NCBI GenBank assembly: GCA_964416445.1
Contig: CAYQEE010000006.1
Location: 21,230 to 85,229, forward strand
Reading direction: 5' to 3'
Length of the DNA: 64,000 nucleotides
Origin: an uncultured Gammaproteobacteria bacterium
GTDB lineage: Bacteria; Patescibacteriota; Microgenomatia; Levybacterales; UBA12049
The first letter of the stretch is position 1. The number at the start of each line of letters is the position of its first letter. The position numbers were made by a program, and so were the translations under genes. Shown piece by piece: positions 778 to 36,177 of this stretch. Below the pieces are notes generated by a model. That model was not told the origin of the DNA. It saw only the letters and a list, made by a program, of their open reading frames with translations, and searched no databases.

Positions 778-957
778 ACGAGCAGTAATATAAAATCCCT
801 CCTTCTATCGTATGGTAGTTAACAAGAAGTGTCAACTACCGTAAGAGCCTTTATAGGAAACTGATACTATATTGAGAATATGATGATATTGTTTTGTCAC
901 AATTTCTTGATTGTAGGGTTATCAATCTTTTTTCTCACACTAATTTTCTATAGGGTA

Positions 958-987
958 TTGACAACTGTTTGGGAAATTTGTTATAAA
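958..987 (+). promoter_or_regulatory. Sigma70-like promoter for groES-groEL (TTGACA, 17-nt spacer, TATAAA).
   Basis: TTGACA lies at 958-963 and TTATAA/TATAAA at 981-987, about 55 nt upstream of the groES ATG. Confidence 0.5.
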
Positions 988-1014
988 TTAGCAGTCACTT
1001 ATTCACAGTGATTT
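988..1014 (+). promoter_or_regulatory. Degenerate CIRCE-like HrcA operator next to the groES promoter.
   Basis: The site reads TTAGCAGTC-N9-CAGTGATTT. The left half matches the CIRCE consensus TTAGCACTC-N9-GAGTGCTAA at 8 of 9 positions and the right half at 5 of 9. It contains the inverted repeat TCACT-N7-AGTGA. hrcA is present in this window. Confidence 0.35.
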
Positions 1015-1043
1015 TTTAGTTTCCTGTTAGAAGAAATAAAAAT

Positions 1044-1331
1044 ATGAAAATTACACCATTATTTGATAATGTTTTAATTCAAGCTGTTGAGGCAGAATCA
1101 AAAACAGCAAGTGGCATCATTTTACCTGATACGGTTAAAGAAAAACCACAAATGGGTGTAGTAAAAGCAGTAGGCAAAGGTAAAACTGATAAAGAAGGTA
1201 AATTTGTTCCGATGGCAGTTAAAGTTGGCGATAAAGTCTATTATAAAAAATGGGGAGGAACAGAAATTAAAGTGAATGGTGAAGAATTAACCATTGTTGG
1301 TCAAGAAGATATTCTTGCAGTTGTAGCATAA
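1044..1331 (+). CDS. groES: Co-chaperonin GroES (Hsp10).
   Basis: The 95-aa protein has the typical GroES mobile-loop and beta-barrel pattern (ILPDTVKEKPQMGVVKAVG...GDKVYYKKWGGTE). It sits immediately upstream of groEL. Confidence 0.95.
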   Translation: MKITPLFDNVLIQAVEAESKTASGIILPDTVKEKPQMGVVKAVGKGKTDKEGKFVPMAVKVGDKVYYKKWGGTEIKVNGEELTIVGQEDILAVVA

Positions 1332-1339
1332 CTAAATAA

Positions 1340-2980
<1,641 letters not shown>

Positions 2981-3004
2981 AGAAGATCGCTATTCTTTTC
3001 CATA

Positions 3005-3029
3005 ACCGCCACTGAAGGCGGTTTTTTTA
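3005..3029 (+). terminator. Rho-independent terminator after groEL.
   Basis: The stem ACCGCC, loop ACTGAA and stem GGCGGT are followed by TTTTTTT. Confidence 0.7.
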
Positions 3030-3084
3030 TACGAAATGAATTATTTAAAACGAATAAGTTGAGTATTTCATATATACTAGAAGT

Positions 3085-4281
3085 ATGAAAAAAGTTGCCG
3101 TATTTAGTCTTCCCGCATATGGGCATGTAAATCCGACGCTCTCTGTCGCACAGGTATTAAGCCAAAAAGGATATGATGTTATTTATTACTCCTCCGAAGA
3201 ATTTCGCGAGCGAATTGAAAAAGCTGGTATTCGATACCGTTCCTATCGTATTCAAGAACGAGTTGACTTGCGAATATCAAATGTTGTTGATATTGCAACC
3301 ACAATCCTCGCCATATCTGAAAAATATATCCCTATCCTTATCCAAGAGCTTGAAAAAGAAAAACCTGATTATATTATTCATGATCAACTTTGTTTTCATG
3401 GCAAAATTGCTGCCCATTATTTTCATATTCCTGCAGCATCATTACAAACATCATTTCTCATAACGAAACGTGTCACCTTTACCTTTCCCCAAGTAGCGCT
3501 TATGTATCTCAAGCAAATTATGCGTCAAGGAAAAAGACATATAAGAAATATGAATAAGTATCGGAAAATCGTAAGAAAATATCATCTGAAAACGCGTGGA
3601 TTTGATGATCTATTTTTAAACGAGGAAAAACTGAATATCGTTTTTACTTCACGATTATTACAACCGAAGGGAAAATTATTTGGAAAAAAATATATCTTCG
3701 TTGGGTCATCGATATCTGCTTCTTCTCGATTAGATAAAAACACGATTGGTACAAAATTAAAAACAAATAAACCAATAATTTATATCTCCTTAGGAACGAT
3801 TTTTAATAATGATTTATCTTTTTTCCATACGTGTGTTCAAGCTTTTAAAGATTCTCCCTATTTTGTTATCATGTCTATTGGTCATCGTTTCACGGAAAAA
3901 GACTTACCTGCAGTTCCTTCTAATATGTACGTCCAAAATTATGTTCCCCAACTTGAGATTCTGAAAAAAGCATCGATATTTATTACTCATGCAGGAATGA
4001 ACAGCGTTACGGAAAGTCTTTCGTTTTCTGTCCCAATGATTTGTATTCCTCAAACAGGAGAACAGATGCTCAATGCATTACGAATTCAACAGATTGGTGC
4101 TGGAGTTGTTTTGGAAGAAGAAGAGCGAACTCCAGAGCGATTGCTATCGTTAGTTACACAGATGCTCAATACAAAATCATTTGTGCAGCATATCCAACCA
4201 GTGAGAGAATCCTTGCTTGATGCAGGAGGATATGAACGAGCAGCAGAAGAAATTATCACCTATTTTCACAAGTCGAAATAA
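3085..4281 (+). CDS. GT1-family UDP-glycosyltransferase (MGT/OleD/YjiC-like).
   Basis: The 398-aa protein has a C-terminal UDP-sugar binding motif (HAGMNSVTESLSFSVPMICIPQTGEQMLNA) and an N-terminal GHVNP acceptor-domain motif. Confidence 0.8.
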   Translation: MKKVAVFSLPAYGHVNPTLSVAQVLSQKGYDVIYYSSEEFRERIEKAGIRYRSYRIQERVDLRISNVVDIATTILAISEKYIPILIQELEKEKPDYIIHDQLCFHGKIAAHYFHIPAASLQTSFLITKRVTFTFPQVALMYLKQIMRQGKRHIRNMNKYRKIVRKYHLKTRGFDDLFLNEEKLNIVFTSRLLQPKGKLFGKKYIFVGSSISASSRLDKNTIGTKLKTNKPIIYISLGTIFNNDLSFFHTCVQAFKDSPYFVIMSIGHRFTEKDLPAVPSNMYVQNYVPQLEILKKASIFITHAGMNSVTESLSFSVPMICIPQTGEQMLNALRIQQIGAGVVLEEEERTPERLLSLVTQMLNTKSFVQHIQPVRESLLDAGGYERAAEEIITYFHKSK

Positions 4282-4286
4282 CCGGT

Positions 4287-4883
4287 ATGATTCCAAAGCT
4301 TTTATTGAATGAGAAAAGTTTTACGATAACTCCGAACGATTTGCCTCTTTTTATTCATGGTGAAGTCCAATCTGGCGCATCTTATTTTAGCATAATAACG
4401 TTCGCATCGCTTGTCCTTCAGGGAGAATCGATTCTTTTTTATAGTGCATTTTTCAGAGGACTCGAAGCATTACAACAATTACTTTCTCAAGAAAAGATTG
4501 CAGTAGTGAGGGAAAATGAAGAGAGTGTAGTGATAAAAAAGAGAAAAATTCTTGCTGTGCAGAGTGGTGATGAACCACTGTTGATGCAAATGTTGACATC
4601 ATGCAAAAATACTCAACGGATTATTTGTATCAAAAATATTGAGACACTTACCAAAAATATTACTCCCTTTATTTCTCATCATAAATTCTTTATTATTTCT
4701 GGAGATATTGAGCGATACCGATACAAACAGGCGTTACTCAACGAACCATTTACGACAAAAATATTATTTTCTCACCTTCCTACATTATTGGTACAACTAC
4801 CAGCTCTTGATAGATTTCAAGCGATTTTCTTAGGTGCAACTACCAGTGGCGTTACACAAGCAACTAATCAAAAACAACACTAA
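4287..4883 (+). CDS. Hypothetical protein, co-transcribed with the GT1 gene.
   Basis: The 198-aa ORF starts 6 nt after the GT1 stop. I recognise no family. Confidence 0.45.
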   Translation: MIPKLLLNEKSFTITPNDLPLFIHGEVQSGASYFSIITFASLVLQGESILFYSAFFRGLEALQQLLSQEKIAVVRENEESVVIKKRKILAVQSGDEPLLMQMLTSCKNTQRIICIKNIETLTKNITPFISHHKFFIISGDIERYRYKQALLNEPFTTKILFSHLPTLLVQLPALDRFQAIFLGATTSGVTQATNQKQH

Positions 4884-5387
4884 TAGGTCGTACAAAAGTA
4901 CGTAATAACCAAGTATATATCTCTACCTCGTTCCTACTAAACAGACCAACAAGTACTGCAAGAATGATCATTTTTCATGATCTCTTTTTTTGGTCAGCAT
5001 GGCAAACGGAAATTTTTTCTCAAGAAGGAGAGCCTATAAAATTTTCAAATTCTCCTGTATAATTGCAAACAAGTTTATACAAAAAATCCTAGTAATCATA
5101 ATTTTCTATAAATAGAAGAACAAAATGCAGATTGGCACAAGCGAAAGTTATTACTTATTTAATTGAGAATAGATACAAAATTTACATCGGTGGATAAATT
5201 ATCAGAATCATGAAAATTGAAATGTGACAATATCATAATCTAACGAAAGGATAAATATTGATAAATTTAATAATAGCCAGTATGATGTAATTGCTGTTTA
5301 CATAGACTCAAAAGACAAAATTATTTTGGTTGATGCTTTCAAAGTTAGAGCAAGAAGTTTGTCCATACGATATTGAATGAGTTATAT

Positions 5388-5474
5388 GGAGAGGTCGCAT
5401 AGTGGTCGAGTGCAGAAGTTTACTAAACTTCCAATCCGTAAGGATTCGTGGGTTCGAATCCCACCCTCTCCGCA
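5388..5474 (+). tRNA. Type II tRNA (long variable arm), Ser-like with a G73 discriminator. The nominal anticodon is ACU.
   Basis: The cloverleaf is read directly from the sequence. Acceptor stem GGAGAGG/CCTCTCC. D-arm GCAT-AGTGGTCGA-GTGC. Anticodon stem GAAGT/ACTTC with loop TTACTAA. Variable arm AATCC-GTAA-GGATT. T-arm GTGGG-TTCGAAT-CCCAC. CCA is not encoded. Confidence 0.8.
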
Positions 5475-5508
5475 AACAGTCATATAGTTTGAAACTTGGT
5501 TTCTACTT

Positions 5509-6417
5509 TTGTATAATCCGTATTTAATGGATCGTAAATACGAAAAAAGAACAACAGGTTTTTTAACTCCTGATAATTGGCTGACTACATATTCAACTGC
5601 AGTAAATAGAACTGCTATGGCTCCTGTAGGAGTAGATCCAATTATGCAAAGATTGCTCATTCAGGCTACAACATTCTTACCGCAACAAACCAGATGGCGA
5701 GATGTTTTACATTCAAGTTTAAATCCATCTCAAAGACTAAAGCTCGCATCAGACATTTCACATTTTCATATAAGTATTTTTGTACCGTTATTGGGTGAAG
5801 GTTTTGACACAAGAACACTTTCTTCAAGACAAATTGAAATATTGAAAATGGCGTCACATCATTACTTTGTCGAACATCAAAGTCCTTCAGAAGTACCAGG
5901 TATCTATTTTTCTTCTTTCTCTGAACAAGACATACAATTAGGAATAATCTATCAAACTCATATAGAGAATAAAATATGGAAAGGAGGAATAATTGGAGGA
6001 ACGTTTAAAGCATTACTTAATTTAATCAATAATGTAGAAGGACTAAACGGCAGAGCACTACTAAAATATAAACAAGTGGATTCTCATGATTCTTTATTAA
6101 CCGAAGACAACGCTCGTCGTCTTGATGAATTCTCTACGAGCGCAGAATACGCCGAAATTATTGGAATGACATTAAACAGGTATGATGCTGCAATATCCGC
6201 ACTCGATAGTGATGAAGGGAGGGAAATTGCACTCAGACAACGAAATGCATTTAATGCCCACCTTGGGGGTAATCCGCGTACAAGAGCAACTGATGAATTA
6301 GAAAAGTTGAATACCTTAGTAAAAAATGCTGTATTAGGAATCCAAGATGATTTACCAAATGTTGCAGTAATACAATTATTAAAAAATATGATAAATCTAA
6401 ATAACTTTAGTAAATAA
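5509..6417 (+). CDS. Hypothetical protein (no recognisable family), immediately downstream of the tRNA.
   Basis: The 302-aa ORF has no TM segments and no motif I recognise. Confidence 0.5.
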   Translation: MYNPYLMDRKYEKRTTGFLTPDNWLTTYSTAVNRTAMAPVGVDPIMQRLLIQATTFLPQQTRWRDVLHSSLNPSQRLKLASDISHFHISIFVPLLGEGFDTRTLSSRQIEILKMASHHYFVEHQSPSEVPGIYFSSFSEQDIQLGIIYQTHIENKIWKGGIIGGTFKALLNLINNVEGLNGRALLKYKQVDSHDSLLTEDNARRLDEFSTSAEYAEIIGMTLNRYDAAISALDSDEGREIALRQRNAFNAHLGGNPRTRATDELEKLNTLVKNAVLGIQDDLPNVAVIQLLKNMINLNNFSK

Positions 6418-12477: not shown

Positions 12478-14292
12478 TTATTCAGTTGTCTCAGGTGCTT
12501 TGTTCTTTCGTCCCATTTTTTGGGTGATGTTTATAAAGAATATTTTTTTTGCAAGGAGAAAACTCCAAAGCAGCCCAATACCAAAGAGGAGAAATGAAAT
12601 ACCAGAAATGAGATTACTGATTTTTCGAAGGGGTGTATCAGTCAGTTGTAACGTAATCGTGTGTGCACCTGCTTGGGTTGTTAACTCAATAAAACCAAAT
12701 AAGTTATCAGATCGAATTGGTGTTTGTTTTCCATCAACATATGCTTTCCAACCAGGATATTGATGGACATAAAAAATAAACTGAGTGGGAACTTCAGAAA
12801 CAAGGCGGTATTCTTTTTTCGTGGTGTTGTCCGTAAAACGAGTAATATGCGCTTTTCCTGATATAAGTTTAATTTGACTTTGTGGTGTTGAAGCTTTATC
12901 AGGATTGATAATAGCACCTTTAGGCATGTATCCTATTTCAGGAACGGTCGATGAAAAATCTTGCGTTTGTGCCATATCAAACGAAGAGGCAAAACTGCTT
13001 AACCATTGCGCCGGATGCAAATACCACGCTGATAACAGAAAAACGATGATGACACTCACAAAGTAGATGCTATATTGCACTACGGTGTTTCGAATATTCC
13101 AGAGGAGATATCCCCCAAGAATTGCCGAAAGAAAAATGGTAACCGATAAAAATCGCCAAGGGTATTGAATAAGCGCAACATACGGGTTACTTTCCCAAAT
13201 TCGTTGTGTTACTGGTAATGTTAAACAACATACGAGAACAAAAATGCTTATCGTGCCAACAAGCAATATATTCATTGCCTGCGTTTGTTTTTCCCACCGC
13301 CACCAGAGAATACCAATTGCTGTAAAAAAAATAACCCAATTACTTATACCGACTTGAAAGGATAAATCATCTGAACAATCGGGAACGGAAATACCATATC
13401 CCCAATTGGGAGTAAATAATTGTTGGATGCAGACAAAATGTTGATGAAAATCATAGTACCCACTATGGAGATACATTGGTTGAATAAAGGATTGTTCAAA
13501 TACAAGAGGAATAAGAAAAAAAGATGATAAACACGCACCAAAAAGAAAACTTCCGAGAAACAAAAATAACAGCATAAAATTCTTATCAACAAACGCAAGA
13601 TAGAAAAGGTAAAAAAAGATAAACGGCAAAAACATAATAAGTGTGGGAGGATGGGCAGTCAAAAGACTCGCTACGGAAAGACTTGTTAGGAGAAAATAAA
13701 ACAGTTTTTTTGTCGTTGCATATCGTTTCATTGACCAAAAAAGGAAAGGGATAATGGTTAGTGCTAAAAATTCAGGAAGCGCTGCGCGGACAAAAATATC
13801 CAGAATATGATAGGGAGCATAGAGGTAAATAATCCCTGAAAATAATGCAGGAACTTTTCCAAAATATTCTTTTGTAAATGCATACATTGTGATGCCCGAT
13901 AATACCCAGAGAATACCAACTTCTATTTTAAGAGACGTAGTATTTGCGAACCCAAGCATTCGAGGAATTTGGAACAAATAGTAAAAAAGTGGTTGATAAA
14001 AAGTGAATAAGGGTTGATTAAAACCAGGATGTACCCAATCAATCCAACGAACAGGAATTTGTCCGGCGATAACTGCTTTCGTAAAAAGAAGGAGATAAAT
14101 AACATGGGTTTGAATATCATGTCCTGAAAAAATACCATCGTGGGAAAGCAGATAAAAGGGAATAAGAAACAGAAAAAGAGACAAAAAAATACCTGCTTTT
14201 AGCATAACAAGTAATCCAGAAGTATTTTTTTGTTGCGCTGGTTTTTGTTGTGTCCGATAGAGTTGTTGCTGGTGTTTTTTCTTGCGTTTCAT
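12478..14292 (-). CDS. Large polytopic membrane protein of unknown family, GT-C-fold glycosyltransferase-like (possibly YfhO- or PTPS-related).
   Basis: The 604-aa protein has more than 12 TM helices in the N-terminal two thirds and a soluble C-terminal domain. A GHD...H loop follows TM1. Confidence 0.5.
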   Translation of the reverse strand: MKRKKKHQQQLYRTQQKPAQQKNTSGLLVMLKAGIFLSLFLFLIPFYLLSHDGIFSGHDIQTHVIYLLLFTKAVIAGQIPVRWIDWVHPGFNQPLFTFYQPLFYYLFQIPRMLGFANTTSLKIEVGILWVLSGITMYAFTKEYFGKVPALFSGIIYLYAPYHILDIFVRAALPEFLALTIIPFLFWSMKRYATTKKLFYFLLTSLSVASLLTAHPPTLIMFLPFIFFYLFYLAFVDKNFMLLFLFLGSFLFGACLSSFFLIPLVFEQSFIQPMYLHSGYYDFHQHFVCIQQLFTPNWGYGISVPDCSDDLSFQVGISNWVIFFTAIGILWWRWEKQTQAMNILLVGTISIFVLVCCLTLPVTQRIWESNPYVALIQYPWRFLSVTIFLSAILGGYLLWNIRNTVVQYSIYFVSVIIVFLLSAWYLHPAQWLSSFASSFDMAQTQDFSSTVPEIGYMPKGAIINPDKASTPQSQIKLISGKAHITRFTDNTTKKEYRLVSEVPTQFIFYVHQYPGWKAYVDGKQTPIRSDNLFGFIELTTQAGAHTITLQLTDTPLRKISNLISGISFLLFGIGLLWSFLLAKKIFFINITQKMGRKNKAPETTE

Positions 14293-14293
14293 A

Positions 14294-17080
14294 TTACTGT
14301 ATTGGTTGAATCGTATTTAACAGTTGATAAAACGATGCCATTTGTGGCGAATCTGCAGGGGATGCCGTTATTTCATAAATTACAGTATCTTTTTGTAAAA
14401 CAAAAAAGAGCAATGCTTTTCCTGTTGGTAATCCGTAAATTTTTACTGTGGTTTGGAATCCAGGAATAGTATAGGGTTTTGTAGCAAGAAGCACACCTGT
14501 TGGAGGTTGCAAAGAGGAAGTTGCAAGGTACGAATCAACTGTTTCTTGACTGGTGAGTTGGTGACCATGAATAGCTATGGATAATTGGGGATTTGTTACA
14601 GTACTAATATCCCCATTTGCATAAGAGAAACCAGGAGGAACTTGGAAAGAGAGAACATTTTGTTTATCAGTAATTGAAGTCCACCCATTTTGTGTCGGTC
14701 CATTCCCTGTTTGAGAAATTGGTTGGTTAGTTAGGTGAGCTAGTTCGTTTCGTGCATTTTGATAAATTTCTTGAGATGAATCAGTTAGTTGTAACACTGC
14801 TTTAAACTCATTCACTGCATTCTGGATAGCTCCTGATTTTTCATACGATAATCCCAAATTATAATGAATTTCAGGAGTTTGTGAGGTATGCAGTAAGGTA
14901 TTTTGATAGAATGAAATAGCTGAACTATATTGATTCTGCTTAAACATATAATTCCCAATATCACCGAGAAGGTTTGGTTCATATTGGGAAATAGCTAGTC
15001 CTTTTTTAAAACTCGCAATTGCTTGCGGAGAATTTCCATGATCAATATACCAATCGGCAAGTGTTTGGTAAGCATAAATATAATCATCTTGAATATTTTG
15101 GAAGGCACCAATATAATTCCGTTCAATATAAAAAGGTGACGTTTGCATTGCTGAGTGGATTTGAAACTGAAAAGCGTTGAAATTTGGTTGTTCGGTGCTT
15201 GAGGCGTATACAACTCGTAACGTGAGTCCATTGGGTATTAGCTTAAATCGATTATCTAATTGGAGTTCGCCTGATGTTGTCCCGGCAAGTGCTGAAGCAC
15301 GAAGTGCCAGGGGAGTAATATAAATAGGGTGTTTTGCAATATTATCTGCAATTAACGTGTTCATTGCTCGATTATATTCATCAAAATGTTTGTATTGAAT
15401 AATATTTTCAATTTTTGAAGAAACATACACAGGTGTTGCATGACGGATATCATCACGATACCATTTATTCACATAAAATGTATTTACCGTGATGGGAGTA
15501 ATATCGCGACGATAAATATCTGCCTCATGCAGATAATAGGTAAGTGAATTAAAAAAATCTCCTGAACCGAGAATTATAGCATTTTTTTCAAGAGGAAAGT
15601 ATAAATTATATCCATAATCTTTGCTGTAATAATGATGGCTTCTATTCAAGGCACCAATCCATACAAGAAGCGGGAGAATGCAGAGACATGTTAAGAGAAT
15701 TTTTTGGACAGGTGTTTTCGTGATGTATTGGAAAGAAAAATAAAACCCAATTCCAATAAAAATTGCCATAAAAATCCAAACAGGAATAAACCATGATTCT
15801 TGATTTCCTGAGAAATATAATCCCGCATAAGTAACATCGGTCAATGGAGCGAGTAATAATAGGATAAGTATTGTCTTATTTTTTTTCCACAAAACATACA
15901 TTCCCAGAGGAGCCAGAAGAATAACAAATGGAGTAAATTGAATAAAGAAGAGATAAAGAAAATAGAATACTGATTGAATAAAAACTAACGGGGATCCTGT
16001 AAAACCGTTGATGGTATTTGTTTGGGGTTCATAAATATTGAGTCCTTTTCCTTGAAGTTGTCCAATAAAAAGCGGGAGCGTTTGTGGATTTCCCCAGTTT
16101 ACAAAAGGATAACTTCTTGCACGAACGGGAAGATAACTATATATTACCAAAACAGCAAGAAAAAAGCTTACTCCTACGATTAGTAATTTTCTTTGAGTTA
16201 AACTGTCACGAAAGATAAATAATAAGTAAAGGTAAATCGGGAGAAATACTGCGATTGTTGGGTTTGCACCAGTACCAATTCCGAAAGCAACAGCAATAAG
16301 GATAATCCATCGAAATATTATTGCATCAAATGTTTTATCAGGATTTTTTTGCATTTTAAAAGCTACATATTTTTGTAATAATCGCAAGCAAATGTATACA
16401 AAAATAGTCAGTAACGCATAGGTAAAAATGAAGGCTTCGGTATTTTCTGATTGTGACCAATATTCGTATGAGAATGCTAAGCTCATTGTTGCAAAAAATG
16501 CTGCAAGATGGGAAAGATAGGGATGACTTGTTGCGACTGATTGCGTTTCCGTATCTCCAGTGCTTGTTAAGAATTGAGTATCGATGAGAAGTAAAATAAT
16601 GTTGTACAAAAAGAAGAGTAAAATAAGCGACCAAACAATTGTAAATAATTCCAGTCGGGTTAATACGGAAGCAAATGGTAAAATGGCGAAAAAGTGAGAA
16701 ATAAGCATATACAGAGGAAATCCGGGAGGATTGGGAATACCGAGTGACTTTGACGCTGCAATCATTGTTCCAGAATCAATCCAAAGAATTGATGGAGGTT
16801 TGGTGAGAAAGTAGACAATTCCAGCAAAAATTAAAATAAGAGGAAGAAGATAGCGTATATGCACTATAATGAACAAGTATATTTTTTGAAAAATTCTTTC
16901 ACATTGTTCTGAAAATAAAATCCAATACTTTCTTATTGCTTCCATAATTAAGATGCGGTGAGCTTTGTTACTAGTTATATCATATATTGCTGAGTGAGTG
17001 GAAAATATTTTTACGTATTCACGAAGTCTACTAAGTACTGCTGTTTGCACTCCAATCCTGAGGGCAGTTAGTCTTTTCAT
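14294..17080 (-). CDS. DUF2723/TMEM260-like GT-C membrane protein with C-terminal TPR repeats (putative protein O-glycosyl or mannosyl transferase).
   Basis: The 928-aa protein has the N-terminal signature WIDSGTMIAASKSLGIPNPPGFPLY and about 11 TM helices. TPR-like repeats follow (YYSLGNAYQK-type: HYNLGLSYEKSGAIQNAVNEFKAVL). Confidence 0.65.
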   Translation of the reverse strand: MKRLTALRIGVQTAVLSRLREYVKIFSTHSAIYDITSNKAHRILIMEAIRKYWILFSEQCERIFQKIYLFIIVHIRYLLPLILIFAGIVYFLTKPPSILWIDSGTMIAASKSLGIPNPPGFPLYMLISHFFAILPFASVLTRLELFTIVWSLILLFFLYNIILLLIDTQFLTSTGDTETQSVATSHPYLSHLAAFFATMSLAFSYEYWSQSENTEAFIFTYALLTIFVYICLRLLQKYVAFKMQKNPDKTFDAIIFRWIILIAVAFGIGTGANPTIAVFLPIYLYLLFIFRDSLTQRKLLIVGVSFFLAVLVIYSYLPVRARSYPFVNWGNPQTLPLFIGQLQGKGLNIYEPQTNTINGFTGSPLVFIQSVFYFLYLFFIQFTPFVILLAPLGMYVLWKKNKTILILLLLAPLTDVTYAGLYFSGNQESWFIPVWIFMAIFIGIGFYFSFQYITKTPVQKILLTCLCILPLLVWIGALNRSHHYYSKDYGYNLYFPLEKNAIILGSGDFFNSLTYYLHEADIYRRDITPITVNTFYVNKWYRDDIRHATPVYVSSKIENIIQYKHFDEYNRAMNTLIADNIAKHPIYITPLALRASALAGTTSGELQLDNRFKLIPNGLTLRVVYASSTEQPNFNAFQFQIHSAMQTSPFYIERNYIGAFQNIQDDYIYAYQTLADWYIDHGNSPQAIASFKKGLAISQYEPNLLGDIGNYMFKQNQYSSAISFYQNTLLHTSQTPEIHYNLGLSYEKSGAIQNAVNEFKAVLQLTDSSQEIYQNARNELAHLTNQPISQTGNGPTQNGWTSITDKQNVLSFQVPPGFSYANGDISTVTNPQLSIAIHGHQLTSQETVDSYLATSSLQPPTGVLLATKPYTIPGFQTTVKIYGLPTGKALLFFVLQKDTVIYEITASPADSPQMASFYQLLNTIQPIQ

Positions 17081-17330
17081 GGTAATAAATTCGTTAATAA
17101 TTGCAACTATCTTTTTTCAATACTTTTATAACCTCATAGTATTTTCTTCATACCATAAATAACCTAATCCATTCATTAGGTCTCCCTCCAGCTTCTCAAA
17201 TAGATAATCAATTGTAAAGTAGAACGTTTCTCAAGTATTTTATGAGAAAGTATTGTTGGTATAAACAAATAAAAAACTAAAAAAAGAAAGAGATTAATTT
17301 TGGTTGGTTCGATGTCTTATAATACTCTTT

Positions 17331-17633
17331 TTATACAGGTAAGGGTTTTTGGATTTTCTCAGGAACTGCTTCAATGCCAAGAAATATCTCAACGCCTTTT
17401 CTGGTAATTTTAATAATCCCTAGTTCTATCGGTATTTCTTTCGTTTGATCGTCTAGAAGATAAATAATAATTTTTTCTCTAATTGCTGAAATAAAATTGG
17501 TATGTTTTTCAACCACATCAAACGGACCGAGTTCATTAATCAATGTTGCTGCCTTTACATCACCTGCAAAAATTGTTCCTGTTGGACCATTGACTTCCAG
17601 ATGAAATTTTGATGGTTTTAGTATATGTACCAT
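17331..17633 (-). CDS. atpC: F1 ATP synthase epsilon subunit (short, beta-sandwich domain only).
   Basis: It lies directly after atpD. The pattern matches the epsilon N-terminal domain (HLEVNGPTGTIFAGDV...). Confidence 0.6.
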   Translation of the reverse strand: MVHILKPSKFHLEVNGPTGTIFAGDVKAATLINELGPFDVVEKHTNFISAIREKIIIYLLDDQTKEIPIELGIIKITRKGVEIFLGIEAVPEKIQKPLPV

Positions 17634-17639
17634 AAAGAG

Positions 17640-19892
<2,253 letters not shown>

Positions 19893-19902
<10 letters not shown>

Positions 19903-21353
19903 AATTTCATAATTTGATCTTTATGAGTTAAGACATTTTGCAAAAAATCATTAAAGGTTTTTGCGGTAAAGCACGAATCGAAAAGTGCTTTTGTTTCAGG
20001 CGTCTCAGCAGCTTTTTGTAATTTGGTACGAATTTGTGGAATTTTTTCAATTTCTTTAATTTGATCCACCCAAATGAGACTAAAGAGAATGAGTTGTACT
20101 TGTTCTTCAACAATGGCCATAAACGGTTGTTCGAAAAAAGAAAATATTGTATCGCCTTTTTTGAGAATATTAATCACGTTATCAGTCAATTCGGTACCAA
20201 AATGGGAAAGATCTTGCATGCGTTCATACAGCGTTAAAAAAGCAGTTAACTCTCGGGTAATATCTCGATTGAGTTGTGATTGGGTTTGTCTTCCCGCACG
20301 GGTAACAGAAATATGCACATTAATTGCAGGTCGTCGACCGTTATAGAATATTTCACTATCAAATAAGATGTGTCCGTCTGTAATACCCATTAAATTGGTT
20401 TGAATATATCCCGTGATATCTCCCTCAATGGTTTCAACTACAGGAAGACAGGTAATAGAAACTTCACCTTTTGCCGGATGTTTGAAGTTCCCTGCACGTT
20501 CAAGAAGTCGAGCGTGGGTATAGAAAATATCTCCCGGATAACTATCTCGTCCCGGGAAATTATTGGAAACTAACGATAACTCTCGGTAGAATCGAGCATG
20601 GGCATACAGATCGTCAAGAATAATAAGGACATCTTTACCTTGCTCAGCGAAATACTCAGCTAATGTCATGCTCGCAAACGGAGTAACATAAATCGTACTT
20701 GCGGGATCATATGCACTGGAGGCGACGACCACGACTTTATCTCGTAATCCTTCTTCAATTAGTAACTCTTCAATTGCTTTAATATCGCTTTTTTTCTTTC
20801 CAATAATACAGTAAATAGCCACTGTTCCTTCTTTGATTTGTTTTTTAATCGTATTTAATACAAATGCGGATTTTCCTGTTTTTCGATCACCCATGACTAA
20901 CTCTTTTTGACCTTTTCCCAGCGGAATCATCATATCAACAAGTGTTGTTCCTGTTTTAAATGGTCGAGTAATTCTCGCTCGACTTTTAATACCCGGTGGT
21001 CTTGTATCAACTGGGCGAAATTTCACATCTACGGGATGTAATTTCGTGTCATCAAGGGAATTTCCTAAAGGATCAATAAGCATTCCCAATAAATGATCAC
21101 CAACAGGAATCGAGAGCGTGGTTTGTGTACGAACAACCTTTGTCCCAACAGGAATTTTTTCCTGAGAGAACAGTAAAATAGTGACACTATCCCGATTGAG
21201 TCCGATTACCCAACCTTTTTGCCCTGTTTCAAATAACACGAGTTCTCGTAATTTAACATACGGGAGTCCTTTGGCAATCAGAATAGGAGTATTGACTTGA
21301 TCAACCTCACCATATTCACCAAAGGTGGTTAAATAGTATTGATAATCTTGCAT
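19893..21353 (-). CDS. atpA: F1 ATP synthase alpha subunit.
   Basis: The Walker A motif GDRKTGKSAF is present. Confidence 0.95.
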
Positions 21354-21358
21354 CGTTT

Positions 21359-21829
21359 TTATTCTTTTTTATCTTGAATATATTTTTTTAGTGTGTAATC
21401 TCTGGCAAGTCCTCCGGAACCAATAATTGCGCCCGCGATGAGAGTTGGATCTACTTCGATTTTGAAAAGAACTGATCTTTGGTAATTTTTTCGGAACCAC
21501 TCTGCCATCATATCCAACATATTTTCTGTAGGTTGGATTGGCAGAGAGAGTTCAATGAGAGGAAGTGCTGATATTGTCTCTTTGAGAGAAGTAATAAAGT
21601 TTTGCATATCGGTACTATTCGTTTTATTGATTGCATTTGCCGACATAAGTTGTTCGAATTGTTCTTTTTTTTCGTATGACATTATTGTTTTTAAATAAGA
21701 ATCTAGATCCATTTTTTGTGAATAGATACTATTGACCAGTTCATCAAGTTGCCAAAAAAACGCATCAGCGTCTGCTTTTGTCCGAACTAATTGCGTCAAG
21801 TTTTCTTCAGCCAATTTATATGGTGTCAC
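21359..21829 (-). CDS. atpH: ATP synthase delta (OSCP) subunit.
   Basis: The 156-aa protein is in the delta position. Its C-terminus IAGAIIGSGGLARDYTLKKYI is OSCP-like. Confidence 0.7.
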   Translation of the reverse strand: MTPYKLAEENLTQLVRTKADADAFFWQLDELVNSIYSQKMDLDSYLKTIMSYEKKEQFEQLMSANAINKTNSTDMQNFITSLKETISALPLIELSLPIQPTENMLDMMAEWFRKNYQRSVLFKIEVDPTLIAGAIIGSGGLARDYTLKKYIQDKKE

Positions 21830-22499
21830 GTAATAATATATCCTCCTTTTTGGCTTTCTCTAAGGAATCGAGGAGTAATTTTTCATGGTCAGATGTTGAG
21901 ATTGCTCGGCCTAAAAATTCTAATGATACTTTGTGAACGACAGACGTGACATCATTAGCAATTTTATCCATTTGTTCTTTTTTATATGCCTGAAGTTCTT
22001 CCTGCATTTTTTTGAATGATTCATCTGCTTGTTTAACCAAGGTCTCTTGGACGCTTGAGGTTTTATTTGAAAATTCAGCGAGATATGCGTTCATATCATC
22101 TTGAGTGGTTTTGGAAATATTAGTGAACATATCCTGCGTTTGTTGTTCCACAGTCGCATGGAGCGTTTCTAAGTTTTTCTTATATTCACTAAGCAAATCT
22201 TGCACTGTTTTTGCAACAGTTGCGTCTGCATTATCAACAATTTTTTTATTCGTCTCAACAATTTCTTGTTCGAGTTGTGTTCCTTTTTCTGAAGCTTCAG
22301 CTAAAATCCGTTCAGCATCTTTATGGGCATGCAATAATACTTTTTTATAATTGTGAATTGTCCGTTTTTCTTTTTCTTCAAATTTTTCTTCAGCGTCGAA
22401 AACTTTTTTAAAAAAAAGTGCAAACCCGCCAATAGCAACCACTAAAAAACAGGTGAGTACCAACAATAATAAGCCTTCAGAAAGTATAGGCAGATTCAT
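21816..22499 (-). CDS. atpF: ATP synthase Fo b subunit.
   Basis: A single N-terminal TM helix is followed by a long charged coiled-coil stalk. Confidence 0.75.
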   Translation of the reverse strand: MNLPILSEGLLLLVLTCFLVVAIGGFALFFKKVFDAEEKFEEKEKRTIHNYKKVLLHAHKDAERILAEASEKGTQLEQEIVETNKKIVDNADATVAKTVQDLLSEYKKNLETLHATVEQQTQDMFTNISKTTQDDMNAYLAEFSNKTSSVQETLVKQADESFKKMQEELQAYKKEQMDKIANDVTSVVHKVSLEFLGRAISTSDHEKLLLDSLEKAKKEDILLRDTI

Positions 22500-22505
22500 A
22501 TACTT

Positions 22506-23393
22506 TTATAATCTTAACACAAGAAAACCCATAACAAAACCAGTTGCTAAAATAACAATGGCGATAAAGACATTCAGTGCCATACCAATATGAATTTCAG
22601 TACTTGAAAGAGGGTTTCGTCCTAACGCATCAATACCTTTATTTGCTGTCCGTGAAATTAGCACAAAAGCAAATAACAGTGCTAGTGCTACAATACCCCC
22701 AGCGAGAACATACTTAAAAACTAAACTTGGTTGTTCATAGGTTGCCAAGGTACTTAAAGCAAAGATATCAAGTAAACTGGAACGAATATTTGCATTGCCA
22801 ATGAAATAGTGAATATTAAGACTGATAGGAATTTTCCCAATTGTTTTCGGATTACTTGCTGTATAGTCACTGAGCGCAACGCCAATAGTATAACCTGGTG
22901 CGGAAGCTTTTTGTCCAATACCTGAGATAGTGGAACTCGTAATAAAATCACCTTTTTTAATTGGTCCATTGCTTGTTGTAACAAGGATTTGTCCCTGCCC
23001 TGTTGCAACCACGGGATAGAAGGGAATAGGGCCTTGAATGTCTTGGGTAATTGCAGGATTTGCAGTAATAACGCCAACCATAAATTGATCACCGGGAGTT
23101 TTACTTAATGCATAAGTACCATCAGTAAATGAGACAATTTCTCCCTCGCGAATATTCGATGTGCCAATAGGATAATAGTTTGCAGGGGAATAAAGGGTGT
23201 TCGTATCAGTTGCTGCATAGGTAAAGTTTTTTAGTATGGAAGATTGAAAGGAAAAGAGAATAAGAATGATGAGTGAAGTTTCGAAAATTACAAATAACGA
23301 TCGTTTTATTCTAGTTGGTTGTCTCATAAGTACAAGAATAATGGATAAAAATATCCCTCTCATAAGCAAAGCATATTTATCAAAAAAATGCAA
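22506..23393 (-). CDS. Atypical membrane protein occupying the atpB/atpE slot of the operon. It has two N-terminal TM helices, a Gly/Thr/Ser-rich soluble beta domain of about 170 aa, and a C-terminal two-helix hairpin resembling an Fo c-subunit.
   Basis: The C-terminal 70 aa (LAGGIVALALLFAFVLISRT-ANKGIDALGRNP-...IGMALNVFIAIVILATGF) resemble the c-subunit helix-GRNP/ARQP loop-helix pattern. The ion-binding carboxylate position appears to be Asn. The likely start is the ATG at 23363 (MRGIF...). Confidence 0.45.
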   Translation of the reverse strand: MHFFDKYALLMRGIFLSIILVLMRQPTRIKRSLFVIFETSLIILILFSFQSSILKNFTYAATDTNTLYSPANYYPIGTSNIREGEIVSFTDGTYALSKTPGDQFMVGVITANPAITQDIQGPIPFYPVVATGQGQILVTTSNGPIKKGDFITSSTISGIGQKASAPGYTIGVALSDYTASNPKTIGKIPISLNIHYFIGNANIRSSLLDIFALSTLATYEQPSLVFKYVLAGGIVALALLFAFVLISRTANKGIDALGRNPLSSTEIHIGMALNVFIAIVILATGFVMGFLVLRL

Positions 23394-29944: not shown

Positions 29945-29981
29945 ATCTCTTTGTTTATGGTATAGTTTTACTATCCGCCCT

Positions 29982-32856: not shown

Positions 32857-32862
32857 TAATCG

Positions 32863-33216
32863 TTACCTCATTAACAGTATTATTTGAATCACATAGATAA
32901 AAACGAATAGCCAAAACATTACGGTTGTAATTCCAAGAAATCGGGCAAGTAATGCTATTCTTTTATATACTTTTGATGCAACAACAAGGTTGATAATAAA
33001 GAAGATCATGGCAGTTCCCAGATAGATAAATATATCTATTTTTTGCCCGATCCGTTCATATCCCCAAGGCATTTTATTATACAAGGGAAGAAAAGGGGGG
33101 AGTGCATTATAGGAAAACCCAATAAAAAGAAAACTTGCAATTAACAGGAGAAAGCTGATAAGAAAACCCCAATAGGTAATTTTGTCTTGTCGTAAATGTT
33201 TAAAGAATTTTTTCAT
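32863..33216 (-). CDS. Small membrane protein (3-4 TM), hypothetical.
   Basis: The 117-aa protein overlaps the neighbouring genes inside the operon. Confidence 0.4.
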   Translation of the reverse strand: MKKFFKHLRQDKITYWGFLISFLLLIASFLFIGFSYNALPPFLPLYNKMPWGYERIGQKIDIFIYLGTAMIFFIINLVVASKVYKRIALLARFLGITTVMFWLFVFIYVIQIILLMR

Positions 33217-34687
33217 AAATTGTTGTCCGATCTATAGTAAGTCTAGGTGTATATTGATTGAGCGAATAAGGTAAGGCTGGTTCATTAGGAAAAATTATTA
33301 TATACTTTGGTTTGATTTGTGCAAGTATCATTGCAGTTTCTTTCATATTACTTGCACTACTGTCCATATGATAAGCGACAATAAATCGTCCTAGTGGAAG
33401 GGTATTGGTTATCATATAGATCTGAGGGATATCCCCCCAAATGAAAACTCTATCGTTTGGTTTTTTTGTATTGTTAATATATTGGGCAAGTGTTGCATTA
33501 CGAATAGTAACTTTGTCGAAAAATGTATCATATTGTGCTGTTGATTTTTGTTGCATGGTATAGCCAATGAAGTTTCCATAGTATCCAAACAAATACTTAG
33601 GTATTCGTGTATGCAGTCCAAATGGTATATCAATAAGGATAAGTAAACTCAGCATACCTAGGGTAAAAGGGCGTGAAGTTCTTTTCTGAGAAAACCAAAG
33701 TCCAAAACCTAATGATAAACTGGAGAGAATCATGAGAACGTAATGTGTATATGGCCGTTGCGAAAAGAAAATATCAAACAGAGAAAAAACAATCCAAAGA
33801 AAAATGAATAGCTGTGTATGGGTAAACTTTTTACGGAAATAGAAAAGCAAGAGAGTCAAAAGGCAAAGAATACCAAGTTTTACCATAAGAAGGCCACGAG
33901 GAATAACGAAGGTATTTCCATAGGCGACATAATTAACATTACTAAAAAATGCTGAAATAAAGAATGCATGGAGATTCCCTTGAAAGAAAAAAATAATACT
34001 GGTAAGCAGAAAGGGGACAAAAAAACCAGCAACAAAGATACCCAGTATTTTCATTTGTTTTTGTATTTCTGAAAGTTTTGTATAAGAAATAAAAAAGAGA
34101 TAAATAAAAAATGCCGTAAAATCAAAAAAAGCAACAATTTTTGTAAGAAATGCAATGCCAAGGGCAATACCTGCAATGAGTAATAAAATAAGGTGTGCAA
34201 AAGATGGTTTAGTTACTGGTTTCTGTTGAGCTACCATGTAGACAACGATTGCTGCCAAAAGAATAGGTAGGAGCATGAAATTTTCAGCATTTGCTATATT
34301 TCCCTCCAGAAAGGGTGTTGCAAAGAGAAACGCAAATATTCCTGTTGTAATAAATTGTATCTTTTCCTGCAAAAATAATTTTTTCGAAAGAAAATAAAAT
34401 GCGATGACTGTGCAAAGTCCTACGCATAAAGAGAAAATTCTGACGCTTGTTTGATCGCCATTAAAAAATGCATAGAGTACATATAAAAGTGGTGGTTTAT
34501 TATCCCAAATGCCTGTATATAGGATTCTTCCTTGTTTGAGTGCTGTCCCAATCACTTGATAGATTCCCTCATCCCCATACCAATAAGGTTCAAAAATAGA
34601 GGGCAATCGAAGAAGAAAAAAAAGAAATACCGTGAGGAGAAGAAACCATGTAGATTTTTGCTTCTCAAGTTTATGAAGAAGTTTCAT
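33200..34687 (-). CDS. GT-C-fold glycosyltransferase (ArnT/PMT-like, GT39/GT83-type).
   Basis: The 495-aa protein has about 12 TM helices and a first-loop acidic motif YWYGDEGIY. Confidence 0.65.
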   Translation of the reverse strand: MKLLHKLEKQKSTWFLLLTVFLFFLLRLPSIFEPYWYGDEGIYQVIGTALKQGRILYTGIWDNKPPLLYVLYAFFNGDQTSVRIFSLCVGLCTVIAFYFLSKKLFLQEKIQFITTGIFAFLFATPFLEGNIANAENFMLLPILLAAIVVYMVAQQKPVTKPSFAHLILLLIAGIALGIAFLTKIVAFFDFTAFFIYLFFISYTKLSEIQKQMKILGIFVAGFFVPFLLTSIIFFFQGNLHAFFISAFFSNVNYVAYGNTFVIPRGLLMVKLGILCLLTLLLFYFRKKFTHTQLFIFLWIVFSLFDIFFSQRPYTHYVLMILSSLSLGFGLWFSQKRTSRPFTLGMLSLLILIDIPFGLHTRIPKYLFGYYGNFIGYTMQQKSTAQYDTFFDKVTIRNATLAQYINNTKKPNDRVFIWGDIPQIYMITNTLPLGRFIVAYHMDSSASNMKETAMILAQIKPKYIIIFPNEPALPYSLNQYTPRLTIDRTTIYEKIL

Positions 34688-36177
34688 AATTTTTCAGTTA
34701 CTTTATATTCAATTCGTTTCCCAAACATTAGTTGTGTATGAGAAATAAGGGCTGGAAGAGCGCCAAGGAAAAAACCAACAATAGGAAGTAACACTAATTC
34801 AAGCGGAAAAAGGAATTGCTTTGATTTAGAGACGACATGTCGATCTTTTCTATTTCGAAAATCAATAACAATCATGGTTAACGTTGCAAATATACATGAT
34901 GTTAAGATAAATCCTGCAAGTCGAGGAAGGTTATAACCTAAATCAGTATTCACAAACACAGGATTAACAAGAGGAATGACGTTGGCAGCGATAGTAATAA
35001 TAAACCAGTTTACCGGCCACAAAAAATGATCAAGTAAGACATGATATAACATGAGGGTTTTTCGAAAGAATGGTATTCCAGGAACTGTTAACCACCACTG
35101 AATAAAAAGTGGGTCGTCTGATACACCCCACGACCATCGTCGTTCTTGGTCATATTTATTTTTGAGACTTTTCCAATAATTTGAAGACAAAGGTGCATCC
35201 ATTGAGGTTTGCAGAAAAATTGGATCTACCCATGTATTTCCTCGCAATTTATAAAATGCCTTAAAAAAGATACGGTAATCTTCTGGAATAACATCGGTAT
35301 CCCAATATCCAATATCAACGAGCATTTTATATGATAATGAATACGTGGAATTTGAGACTAAACGGTCTCCTTGAATAAGCAGTGCTGTTCGCCATAAGCT
35401 ACTGAAAAAAGCAAGTACCCGAATAGGTGCCGGAACTTCCCAGAAATTATTATAGTTTACATTTGCTGATTGCCAAAATTTATGATTTCTTTTTGGATCA
35501 TGCAAGAAACTATTGGAAAGATAGGAAAAATATTGCGTATCAAAAATGGAATCTGCATCAACTGAAGAAATTGTTGCATAGTCAAGATCAATTTTTTTTG
35601 TTTTGACTAATCGTTCATATGCTTCTTTGGCGGCAAATGATTCATTGGAAGATTTTCCTTTTACCTCTCCGGCAATGTCAGGATGAAAGGTCGCAAAAAT
35701 ATCACCGAAAAATGGCTTAAATTCATGAATCAATTTGTCTGCTTTTTCAGGTCCTTCCGTTTCTCGTAATTCCATGGCCAGAACAATATATAAACGTTTT
35801 GTGGGAAAAGTTTGTTTGGTTATTGCGGCAAGCGTATGTCGTAACTTTTCATAGCGTTCACAATAATTGGGAATGACAATAATATGCGTAACGTTTTCAA
35901 ATTGAGCATGAGATTTTGCTTTTTCTAACCAATTTTGTGCTTCGGCATCCCGTATTTTATTTGAAGCAATCCACGCCATAATTGCTAATGAAAATGAACG
36001 ATAAAGCCAATAAACATCAAAAAGTAAAATGAAGTAAGCTAAAATATTTGGGAGAAATATCGATCCCCATAACGGGAATAAAATAAGCGTCCATGAAATT
36101 AAACCAGGGATAAGTTCAAGGGTTCGTCTTGTTTTAATAGGATAGCGTATGAAAAGTTTATTGAAAAATGAATTCAT
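34684..36177 (-). CDS. Membrane-embedded processive GT2 glycosyltransferase (cellulose/chitin/hyaluronan synthase-like).
   Basis: Motifs SSVDADS, TDVIPEDY and QERRWSWG (QxxRW) are present. There are N- and C-terminal TM helices. Confidence 0.7.
   Translation of the reverse strand: MNSFFNKLFIRYPIKTRRTLELIPGLISWTLILFPLWGSIFLPNILAYFILLFDVYWLYRSFSLAIMAWIASNKIRDAEAQNWLEKAKSHAQFENVTHIIVIPNYCERYEKLRHTLAAITKQTFPTKRLYIVLAMELRETEGPEKADKLIHEFKPFFGDIFATFHPDIAGEVKGKSSNESFAAKEAYERLVKTKKIDLDYATISSVDADSIFDTQYFSYLSNSFLHDPKRNHKFWQSANVNYNNFWEVPAPIRVLAFFSSLWRTALLIQGDRLVSNSTYSLSYKMLVDIGYWDTDVIPEDYRIFFKAFYKLRGNTWVDPIFLQTSMDAPLSSNYWKSLKNKYDQERRWSWGVSDDPLFIQWWLTVPGIPFFRKTLMLYHVLLDHFLWPVNWFIITIAANVIPLVNPVFVNTDLGYNLPRLAGFILTSCIFATLTMIVIDFRNRKDRHVVSKSKQFLFPLELVLLPIVGFFLGALPALISHTQLMFGKRIEYKVTEKL

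Follow-up and report, generated by a model that had tools for sequence, protein, structure and literature searches.

Two adjacent genes in the 64,000-nucleotide stretch of DNA analysed here (hereafter the window) encode membrane proteins of GT-C glycosyltransferase families. The first, a 928-aa ORF (14294..17080, the maximal reading frame including the stop codon; this and all other coordinates of the pair and its features are on the minus strand), is a well-supported bacterial member of the TMEM260 family (DUF2723, PF11028), and the second, a 604-aa ORF (12478..14292), belongs to PF10131 (PTPS_related) and has a YfhO-like architecture. GT-C enzymes draw on a sugar donor that is carried in the membrane on polyprenyl phosphate, and transfer its sugar to an acceptor on the outer side of the cytoplasmic membrane. 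The pair is probably best explained as two extracytoplasmic GT-C glycosyltransferases, the TMEM260-like enzyme acting on protein and the 604-aa enzyme acting in the same pathway.

The 928-aa protein is a bacterial TMEM260 relative

PF11028 matched residues 102–291 of the 928-aa protein at 78.6 bits against a gathering score of 24.2 (E 6.4e-22), and it matched all 37 of 37 aligned homologues. When a TPR-free family profile was compared with PDB sequences, human TMEM260 was the sole match (E 1e-21, residues 36–479); a single-sequence search finds this likeness only over the first ~75 residues of the aligned core. These results bear out the DUF2723 signature that an earlier, sequence-only reading of this DNA had reported. 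Pfam profile searches returned no PMT_2 or MIR match in the protein.

The model of the 928-aa protein, which is confident, displays a GT-C fold whose membrane core has 11 transmembrane (TM) helices; it also shows an alpha/beta domain of five strands, and TPR helices. The core spans residues ~70–480 (15641..16873), including the first outside loop and the loop that matches the human donor-loading loop, and is followed by an extracytoplasmic, Rossmann-like alpha/beta domain at residues 481–653 (15122..15640), with model strands at 502–505, 528–531, 586–588, 612–617 and 620–625. Human TMEM260 (PDB 9RQL, 9RQM and 9RQN), a protein O-mannosyltransferase of the same Pfam family that we compared through its cryo-EM description, arranges its parts in the same order: a GT-C core of 11 helices comes first, then a Rossmann-like domain with five strands, and last a TPR domain, which binds the acceptor peptide. 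The lipid carrier is expected to be a bacterial polyprenyl phosphate in a bacterium, as against dolichyl phosphate for the human enzyme. We found no characterised bacterial TMEM260 homologue in the literature searched, where the one paper that mentions DUF2723 notes only ‘distant homologs in bacteria’. The 928-aa protein is a fairly ordinary member of a known family.

The length of 928 aa is the longest possible reading of the ORF. Homologue N-termini start only ~20–25 residues ahead of the TKPPSILWIDSG motif, and the first 45–70 residues are therefore probably not translated; M46, TTG codon 70 and GTG codon 74 are possible true starts. The N-terminal stretch (residues 1–69, 16874..17080), which by the same count back from TKPPSILW probably lies upstream of the true start, is unconserved, and the model has a pLDDT of 57–75 across residues 1–80. 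No Shine–Dalgarno sequence was visible in the DNA at either ATG of the ORF.

Catalytic aspartates are conserved and donor contacts differ

Residues 102–124, DSGTMIAASKSLGIPNPPGFPLY, fall within the PF11028 match and, as mapped by hand from the HMMER alignment, form the sugar-recognition motif in the first outside loop (16709..16777). In this motif D102 (16775–16777), part of WIDSG, aligns with human D52, while D508 (15557–15559), part of a GxGD motif, aligns with human D441; each is kept in 37/37 family members. The alignment places human R439-G440-D441 against S506-G507-D508. According to the TMEM260 structure paper, D52 and D441 are both essential by mutagenesis, with D441A abolishing activity, and D441 is the catalytic base, located in the Rossmann-like domain, that activates the peptide Thr hydroxyl. 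A third acidic residue is common to both proteins, as the GNQESW motif is aligned to human G351–W357 and E354 is retained as E428. Across divergent homologues of the 928-aa protein many loop motifs are kept, GIPNPPGFP, GNQESW and GxGD among them.

The human donor-contact residues (H67, R264, Y267 and R355), by contrast, were not conserved at the aligned positions in the 928-aa family. Human H67 is replaced by N117 (present in 36/37 members) and R355 by S429, while R264 and Y267 of the donor-loading loop are without clear counterpart, aligning with G344 and L347 where the loop alignment is uncertain. These four residues define the human mannose site and not the Pfam family. The donor sugar of the 928-aa enzyme need not be mannose.

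The TPR domain is followed by a PsbP-like domain

Pfam TPR_2 and TPR_11 matched above their cutoffs over approximately residues 660–780. Together with the model helices and the TPR matches in PDB searches, this delimits a TPR domain at residues 654–785 (14726..15121), with seven helices, or ~3.5 repeats, as against five helices in human TMEM260. Of the Asn ladder described for the human TPR, only one repeat asparagine is kept here, N741 (36/37 members). The C-terminal TPR array that the sequence-only reading had described is therefore present, but its framing as a fusion is wrong, the human protein having the same Rossmann-like and TPR lobe. By analogy with the human domain, protein-substrate recognition by the TPR would be a reasonable role.

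Beyond the TPR, and joined to it via a low-confidence linker (786–800), lies an extra C-terminal, beta-rich domain of ~130 aa at residues 801–928 (14297..14680; model strands and helices at 801–921), which is absent from human TMEM260. Foldseek matched this domain to cyanobacterial PsbP (2xb3; E 4e-4, target TM-score 0.57), and Pfam PsbP_2 was matched by one member of the family (E 5.9e-5). A local HMM built for the domain hit every Microgenomates homologue, and also TPR membrane paralogues encoded nearby, but none of the homologues from other phyla. This real addition to the family architecture had been missed in the earlier reading.

The 604-aa protein combines a GT-C core with a YfhO-like C-terminal region

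PF10131, a family of unknown function in the GT-C/PMT clan, matched the 604-aa protein at 31.9 bits against a cutoff of 26.4 and was matched by 36 of its 40 aligned homologues. With PF11028 and PF10131 both above cutoff, profile searches assign a GT-C fold to each protein of the pair, as had been proposed. PMT_2 gave a weak match to the 604-aa protein, below cutoff (E 0.005), and a MIR domain was not matched in Pfam.

About 12 TM helices are seen in the model of the 604-aa protein, where more than 12 had been claimed before, and those at residues 24–422 (13027..14223) make up the GT-C transmembrane core. The soluble domain claimed for this protein exists but is not C-terminal: an extracytoplasmic region at residues 423–553 (12634..13026), with an eight-stranded beta-sandwich at 474–550, is followed by a last TM helix (model helix 554–594, with a hydrophobic segment at residue 557) and a basic cytoplasmic tail, which together occupy residues 554–604 (12481..12633). 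An invariant H58-D59 lies in the first outside loop, and D59 (14116–14118), R82, R169, E174, H214 and R380 are each found in 40/40 members.

Like the YfhO/GtlB-type enzymes (PF09586, PMT_2) of multi-component transmembrane glycosylation systems, the 604-aa protein has a beta-domain on the outside and a final TM helix in addition to its GT-C core, and transfer from a flipped polyprenyl-phosphate sugar would be the expected mechanism for both. It is ~250 residues shorter than the YfhO profile, and there was no full-length YfhO (PF09586) match; its C-terminal 173 residues aligned, below cutoff, only through ~70 residues (profile positions 756–823 of 835, E 3.6e-4). The YfhO profile was matched by 8 of the 40 family members. 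YfhO-type systems usually have a partner GT2, which makes the polyprenyl-phosphate sugar, and a GtrA-type flippase, whereas neither adjoins the 604-aa gene.

Other genes in the window

A separate gene at 33200..34687 encodes a PMT/PMT_2-like protein of 495 aa; unlike the protein O-mannosyltransferases PMT/POMT (GT39) and TMTC1–4, the pair is without MIR domains. The 497-aa protein at 34684..36177 gave no GT-C family match, showing instead a weak PgaC-like GT2 match (E 4e-5) and a 1+3 TM layout, and the count of four GT-C enzymes in the window thus comes down to three that are supported. The ‘unusually heavy investment’ in glycosylation that was read from this count is not something that one window can judge, and related genomes hold larger clusters of such genes.

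Also encoded in the window are a decaprenyl-phosphate phosphoribosyltransferase homologue (above the NCBIfam cutoff) and a GT2, which possibly provide a donor route, as well as a WecA-like GT4. The GT2 nearest to the pair is 15 kb away, and within the window we recognised neither a GtrA-type flippase nor a clear polyprenyl-phosphate hexose synthase. A secreted protein with a Thr/Pro-rich linker, encoded at 1–777, is a possible acceptor; the sequence-only reading had suggested pilin, S-layer or sortase substrates as candidates. The human IPT sequon, P-x5-P-x3-G-P-x2-[GA]-G-G-x2-[ST], had no strict or relaxed match in the window's ORFs of at least 80 aa, which represent one window of the genome.

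Proposed function

We propose that the 928-aa protein most likely works like human TMEM260. Its 11-helix core would bind a lipid-linked sugar, with D102 positioning the donor, while the TPR helices and the Rossmann-like domain would hold part of a secreted or surface protein in extended form, allowing D508 to deprotonate a Ser/Thr hydroxyl for inverting transfer. The PsbP-like domain probably adds a substrate- or partner-binding surface. The 604-aa enzyme probably acts in the same pathway, where it may extend the glycan, or use the same lipid-linked donor to modify a related acceptor.

The most serious alternative, which we regard as possible although distinctly less probable, is that the acceptor is not a protein but a cell-wall or membrane glycopolymer or a glycolipid, as for YfhO, GtlB and ArnT, with the TPR and PsbP-like domains binding the polymer or a partner. 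TPR domains are found also on polysaccharide-handling enzymes and exporters, which makes such an acceptor possible, and neither the donor contacts of the human enzyme nor most of its Asn ladder is conserved; these differences, like the lack of an IPT sequon in the window ORFs, tell against the protein-directed reading. The beta-domain and terminal TM helix of the 604-aa protein, and the relatives of it that match YfhO, point the same way. Among bacterial YfhO and PMT_2-type GT-C enzymes, those that a review lists as characterised act on teichoic acids and wall polysaccharides. ArnT, AftD, AftA and AftB, which are among the top structural neighbours, all use lipid or polysaccharide acceptors; ArnT, AglB/STT3/PglB and the mycobacterial Aft arabinosyltransferases share 9–12% identity with the pair, differ in their outside domains and gave no profile matches. 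The polyprenyl-phosphate phosphoribosyltransferase homologue and the WecA-like GT4 in the window are also typical of glycopolymer synthesis. Against a non-protein acceptor, the Rossmann-like domain is fully kept together with the TPR and with the invariant aspartate that in the human enzyme activates Thr, and the CsbB-type GT2 or GtrA-type flippase usual for YfhO-type systems is not beside the pair.

A bolder form of the protein-directed reading, which we put forward tentatively and consider rather unlikely as a whole, is that the two genes form a self-contained protein O-glycosylation module of Microgenomates-type (CPR) bacteria. Here the TMEM260-like enzyme, with its TPR and the lineage-specific PsbP-like domain as guides, would put the first sugar on extended, Thr/Pro-rich parts of surface proteins that are secreted, such as the 1–777 protein, and the PF10131 enzyme would extend or complete the glycan. 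If true, bacterial DUF2723 and PF10131 would both gain their first assigned function, and the split-active-site mechanism known from human TMEM260 would be older than eukaryotes, with a donor that may carry a sugar other than mannose, for example a polyprenyl-phosphate pentose.

Linkage of the two genes

A single nucleotide separates the stop codon of the 928-aa gene from the start codon of the 604-aa gene, in a TAA-T-ATG junction (14290..14296) read directly from the sequence, and the two genes are most likely co-transcribed. Their neighbours are an ATP synthase operon, a 123-aa membrane ORF and a HAD hydrolase. Overlapping or abutting junctions were also found at four orthologous loci (L001, L005, L008 and L011). 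A PF10131-like gene directly adjoins the TMEM260-like gene in 12 of 14 distinct close orthologous loci and lies 3.5 kb off in one more.

This adjacency might be no more than inherited gene order, with a TMEM260-like protein glycosyltransferase and an unrelated GT-C enzyme serving separate pathways, an explanation that we find improbable. The adjoining PF10131-like gene varies in orientation across the close loci, being co-directional, convergent or divergent, and a shared transcript is thus not conserved. In a distant Microgenomates clade, a PF10131 gene was within the flanks in 0/11 loci, and the pairing is therefore not obligatory. Islands with several GT-C and TPR membrane genes occur at related loci, where clustering may reflect a general glycosylation region. 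However, the adjacency has outlasted changes of orientation among close loci that share only 45–55% protein identity, which suggests selection for proximity, and the co-directional genes 1 nt apart or overlapping likewise argue against separate pathways. That either protein, or both, has kept the GT-C fold without catalytic activity and serves as a scaffold or chaperone is highly improbable, given that the acidic residues D102, D508 and E428 are invariant in 37 homologues and D59 and E174 in 40, and that the loop motifs of the 928-aa protein are kept.

A TMEM260-type enzyme with both catalytic aspartates

Two long minus-strand reading frames had been proposed at 12478–17080 and both are there, at 14294..17080 (−; 928 aa) and 12478..14292 (−; 604 aa), with a single base separating the stop codon of the larger frame from the start codon of the smaller (TAA-T-ATG, read from the sequence). 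The larger product is of the DUF2723/TMEM260 type, as had been claimed: Pfam PF11028 (TMEM260-like) matched residues 102–291 (E 6.4e-22; 78.6 bits against a gathering score of 24.2), and the signature peptide quoted in the sequence-only reading, DSGTMIAASKSLGIPNPPGFPLY, is residues 102–124. TPR_2 and TPR_11 were above the Pfam cutoff at about residues 660–780, and NCBIfam gave generic TPR matches only. Public databases already contain an identical protein. About 85 full-length homologues (28–50% identity, 760–950 aa) come from Levy-, Davies-, Curtiss- and Gottesmanbacteria and other Patescibacteria, those with names being labelled ‘DUF2723 domain-containing protein’; among the aligned homologues PF11028 was found in 37/37 and TPR_2 in 34/37. 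Judged by these nearest homologues, the window most likely derives from a Microgenomates-type CPR bacterium. An AlphaFold model built on an alignment of 37 sequences was confident (mean pLDDT 87, pTM 0.77), with 11 transmembrane (TM) helices, a five-stranded alpha/beta domain (residues about 485–650), seven TPR helices (654–785), a low-confidence linker (786–800) and a beta-rich domain (801–928).

TMEM260 was not identified as a protein O-mannosyltransferase until 2023, and its structure dates from 2026. The human protein comprises an 11-helix GT-C core (residues 24–415), a Rossmann-like domain built on a five-stranded sheet (416–564) and a TPR domain (565–706) that holds the extended acceptor peptide; the Rossmann-like domain supplies the general base, D441, the donor is positioned by D52 of the first luminal loop, and four further residues (H67, R264, Y267 and R355) make contact with the mannose phosphate (10.64898/2026.03.17.711096, preprint).

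Human TMEM260 is now in the PDB sequence set (9RQL, 9RQM and 9RQN), where a single-sequence search with the 928-aa protein matched it over residues 84–159 only (E 1.8e-7), and a family profile without the TPR region found it as the sole match (E 1e-21), profile positions 16–476 aligning with human residues 36–479. The residue comparison is this profile–sequence alignment, PDB fold libraries, apparently older than these entries, having given no TMEM260 match. In it, the donor-positioning D52 corresponds to D102, the general base D441 (in R-G-D) to D508 (in S-G-D) and E354, to which the preprint assigns no role, to E428 (in GNQESW), each kept in 37/37 homologues. The mannose contacts H67 and R355 are replaced by N117 (36/37) and S429 (35/37), and R264 and Y267, which contact phosphate and sugar, fall opposite G344 and L347 in a loop of uncertain alignment; because these residues differ, the donor sugar is not fixed as mannose. 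Of the human TPR asparagine ladder, a single repeat asparagine is kept in the bacterial family (N741 of the 928-aa protein).

The TPR array had been read as a fusion special to the 928-aa protein. This does not stand, since human TMEM260 shares the Rossmann-like plus TPR lobe, and the supposed fusion is the ancestral architecture. What sets the 928-aa protein apart from its human counterpart is an added stretch of about 130 residues at its end; the true addition is a PsbP-like C-terminal domain, not the TPR.

A lineage-specific PsbP-like domain

Foldseek aligned the C-terminal region of the model with cyanobacterial PsbP (2xb3; E 4e-4, target TM-score 0.57, 154 columns), and one family member matched Pfam PsbP_2 (E 5.9e-5). 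A local HMM located the domain at the C-terminal end of all Microgenomates TMEM260-like proteins fetched, and likewise of divergent 630–755-aa TPR membrane proteins adjoining in five fetched loci (L001, L003, L008, L016 and L020), and gave no match to it in the homologues of Nitrospirota, WOR-1, archaea and Deltaproteobacteria. A single-sequence Pfam search of the domain gave no match and exhaustive phmmer with the domain alone gave just 5, none informative; its profile matched nothing in a 5.8-billion-protein set and reached only chance-level matches among PDB sequences. A stand-alone protein of 154 aa (P0227) matches the entire domain (E 6e-7), which may mean that it occurs as a separate protein too.

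More broadly, membrane proteins of 590–755 aa, most with TPR and a PsbP-like C-terminal domain, adjoin the TMEM260-like gene in related genomes (L001 5774–9896 (−), L003 15986–19887 (−), L008 14838–19183 (−), L016 7048–8973 (+) and L020 7248–9341 (−)). Their N-terminal membrane part has no Pfam match and matches the TMEM260-like profile weakly; none of this type lies within the window. On a Methanosarcinales-labelled contig (L035 3231–17075 (+)), seven consecutive ORFs match the TMEM260-like profile, four spanning most of it, one starting in the membrane core and reaching the TPR, and two covering the TPR region only.

Conserved pairing with a PF10131 enzyme

The 604-aa protein scored above the Pfam cutoff for PF10131 (PTPS_related; 31.9 versus 26.4 bits), with a weak PMT_2 match and no NCBIfam match; its aligned homologues matched PF10131 in 36/40 cases, YfhO in 8/40 and PMT_2 in 7/40. 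PF10131 is a GT-C/PMT-clan family without assigned function in the literature (PMC7801869). The model is very confident (pLDDT 90.5, pTM 0.91) and has about 11 TM helices, then an outside region that contains a beta-sandwich of eight strands (474–550), a final TM helix (554–594) and a basic tail; over its last 173 residues the protein matched the end of the YfhO profile (E 3.6e-4). Invariant in the 40 homologues are D59 (in H-D after TM1), R82, R169, E174, H214 and R380.

The sample comprised 35 loci of species-representative genomes together with contigs for two homologues, and every ORF was scored against HMMs of both families. Among close orthologues (about 45–55% identity, 14 distinct loci), a PF10131-like gene was immediately adjacent in 12, 3.5 kb off in one and absent in one. 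Its orientation varied between same strand, convergent and divergent, and in co-directional pairs the gene junctions abut or overlap. The two genes stay neighbours in all three arrangements, which speaks for a functional link between them; the link is not universal, as none of 11 more distant Microgenomates loci had a PF10131-like gene within its flanks. The pairing gives the uncharacterised PF10131 family its first functional lead.

Proposed activity of the pair

The larger enzyme has the fold, the family signature and the conserved catalytic residues of TMEM260, and the best-supported reading is that the pair are extracytoplasmic, polyprenyl-phosphate-sugar-dependent GT-C glycosyltransferases. 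Acting as TMEM260 does, the 928-aa enzyme would bind its donor through the membrane core and D102 and its acceptor through the TPR and Rossmann-like domains, with D508 as base. We infer that the acceptor is a protein, that the two enzymes cooperate and that the PsbP-like domain has a role. The main rival, by analogy with YfhO, GtlB or ArnT (review PMC8035078), is that the acceptor may instead be a wall or membrane glycopolymer.

As to the donor, a minus-strand cluster at 29156–36177 (29–36 kb) carries genes for a GT2, a homologue of decaprenyl-phosphate phosphoribosyltransferase (30852–31796 (−); NCBIfam NF008978, 213 bits against a cutoff of 207), a WecA/MraY-like GT4, a PMT-like GT-C of 495 aa and a 497-aa membrane protein, and includes a 117-aa ORF with three TM helices. 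Such a gene set points to a pathway for polyprenyl-phosphate pentose in a CPR-type bacterium, which could provide a donor of that kind. Among the window's small multi-TM ORFs, none was recognisable as a GtrA-type flippase. Four GT-C enzymes had been counted in the window, of which three are supported; the 497-aa protein has a weak PgaC-like match only and a 1+3 TM layout.

A plausible O-glycosylation target is the putative secreted protein at 1–777 (−), whose gene is cut by the window edge: it is signal-anchored and has no Pfam match, and its domain of about 170 aa is followed by a Thr/Pro-rich linker, TPTGAVTPTNTPTPTNAPSVTPGGGGGGGGTTPTPT, that includes eight glycines in a row. No window ORF contained the acceptor sequon that has been proposed for human TMEM260.

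Bacterial homologues of TMEM260 were already noted in 2023 (PMC10214176), and no characterised bacterial TMEM260/DUF2723 member was apparent in the literature searched, where DUF2723 comes up in a single paper. Public records already carry a family annotation for both genes, so the advance is incremental and would not surprise a specialist. New are the alignment-based placement of the two catalytic aspartates in the bacterial TMEM260 family, the lineage-specific PsbP-like domain and the conserved pairing with PF10131. Relatives so far known just as ‘DUF2723’ annotations thus include, in Microgenomates-type bacteria, the entire human architecture with both predicted catalytic aspartates. The locus thereby offers a tractable model of the family in bacteria, and it frames a concrete hypothesis that uncultured bacteria with small genomes may glycosylate their surface proteins.

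Genomic surroundings

Directly upstream of the pair, on the same strand, lies an ATP synthase operon (17331–23393 (−)) ending in an atpC-like epsilon subunit gene (17331..17633 (−)); the pair is followed downstream by a membrane ORF of 123 aa in convergent orientation and by a gene for a Cof-type HAD hydrolase. In L001, the closest orthologous locus, the operon (1–5762 (+)) is also near the TMEM260-like gene. We set aside a functional tie to it: two opposite-strand genes intervene in L001 and the operon is absent near the TMEM260-like gene in L003, so its position probably reflects local gene order, not function. Promoter and terminator scans of the window between 11 and 18 kb found sites no commoner than in shuffled sequence, and transcription units around the pair are therefore not delimited. 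The 250-nt gap between the atpC-like and 928-aa genes holds a 16-codon ORF (MNGLGYLWYEENTMRL; about 17131–17200 (−)) preceded by a strong Shine–Dalgarno-like GGAGGGAG; no such site accompanies either candidate ATG of the 928-aa gene. Elsewhere in the window, 3085–4281 (+) encodes a macrolide-family (MGT) GT-B glycosyltransferase (TIGR01426, 339.6 bits against a cutoff of 260).
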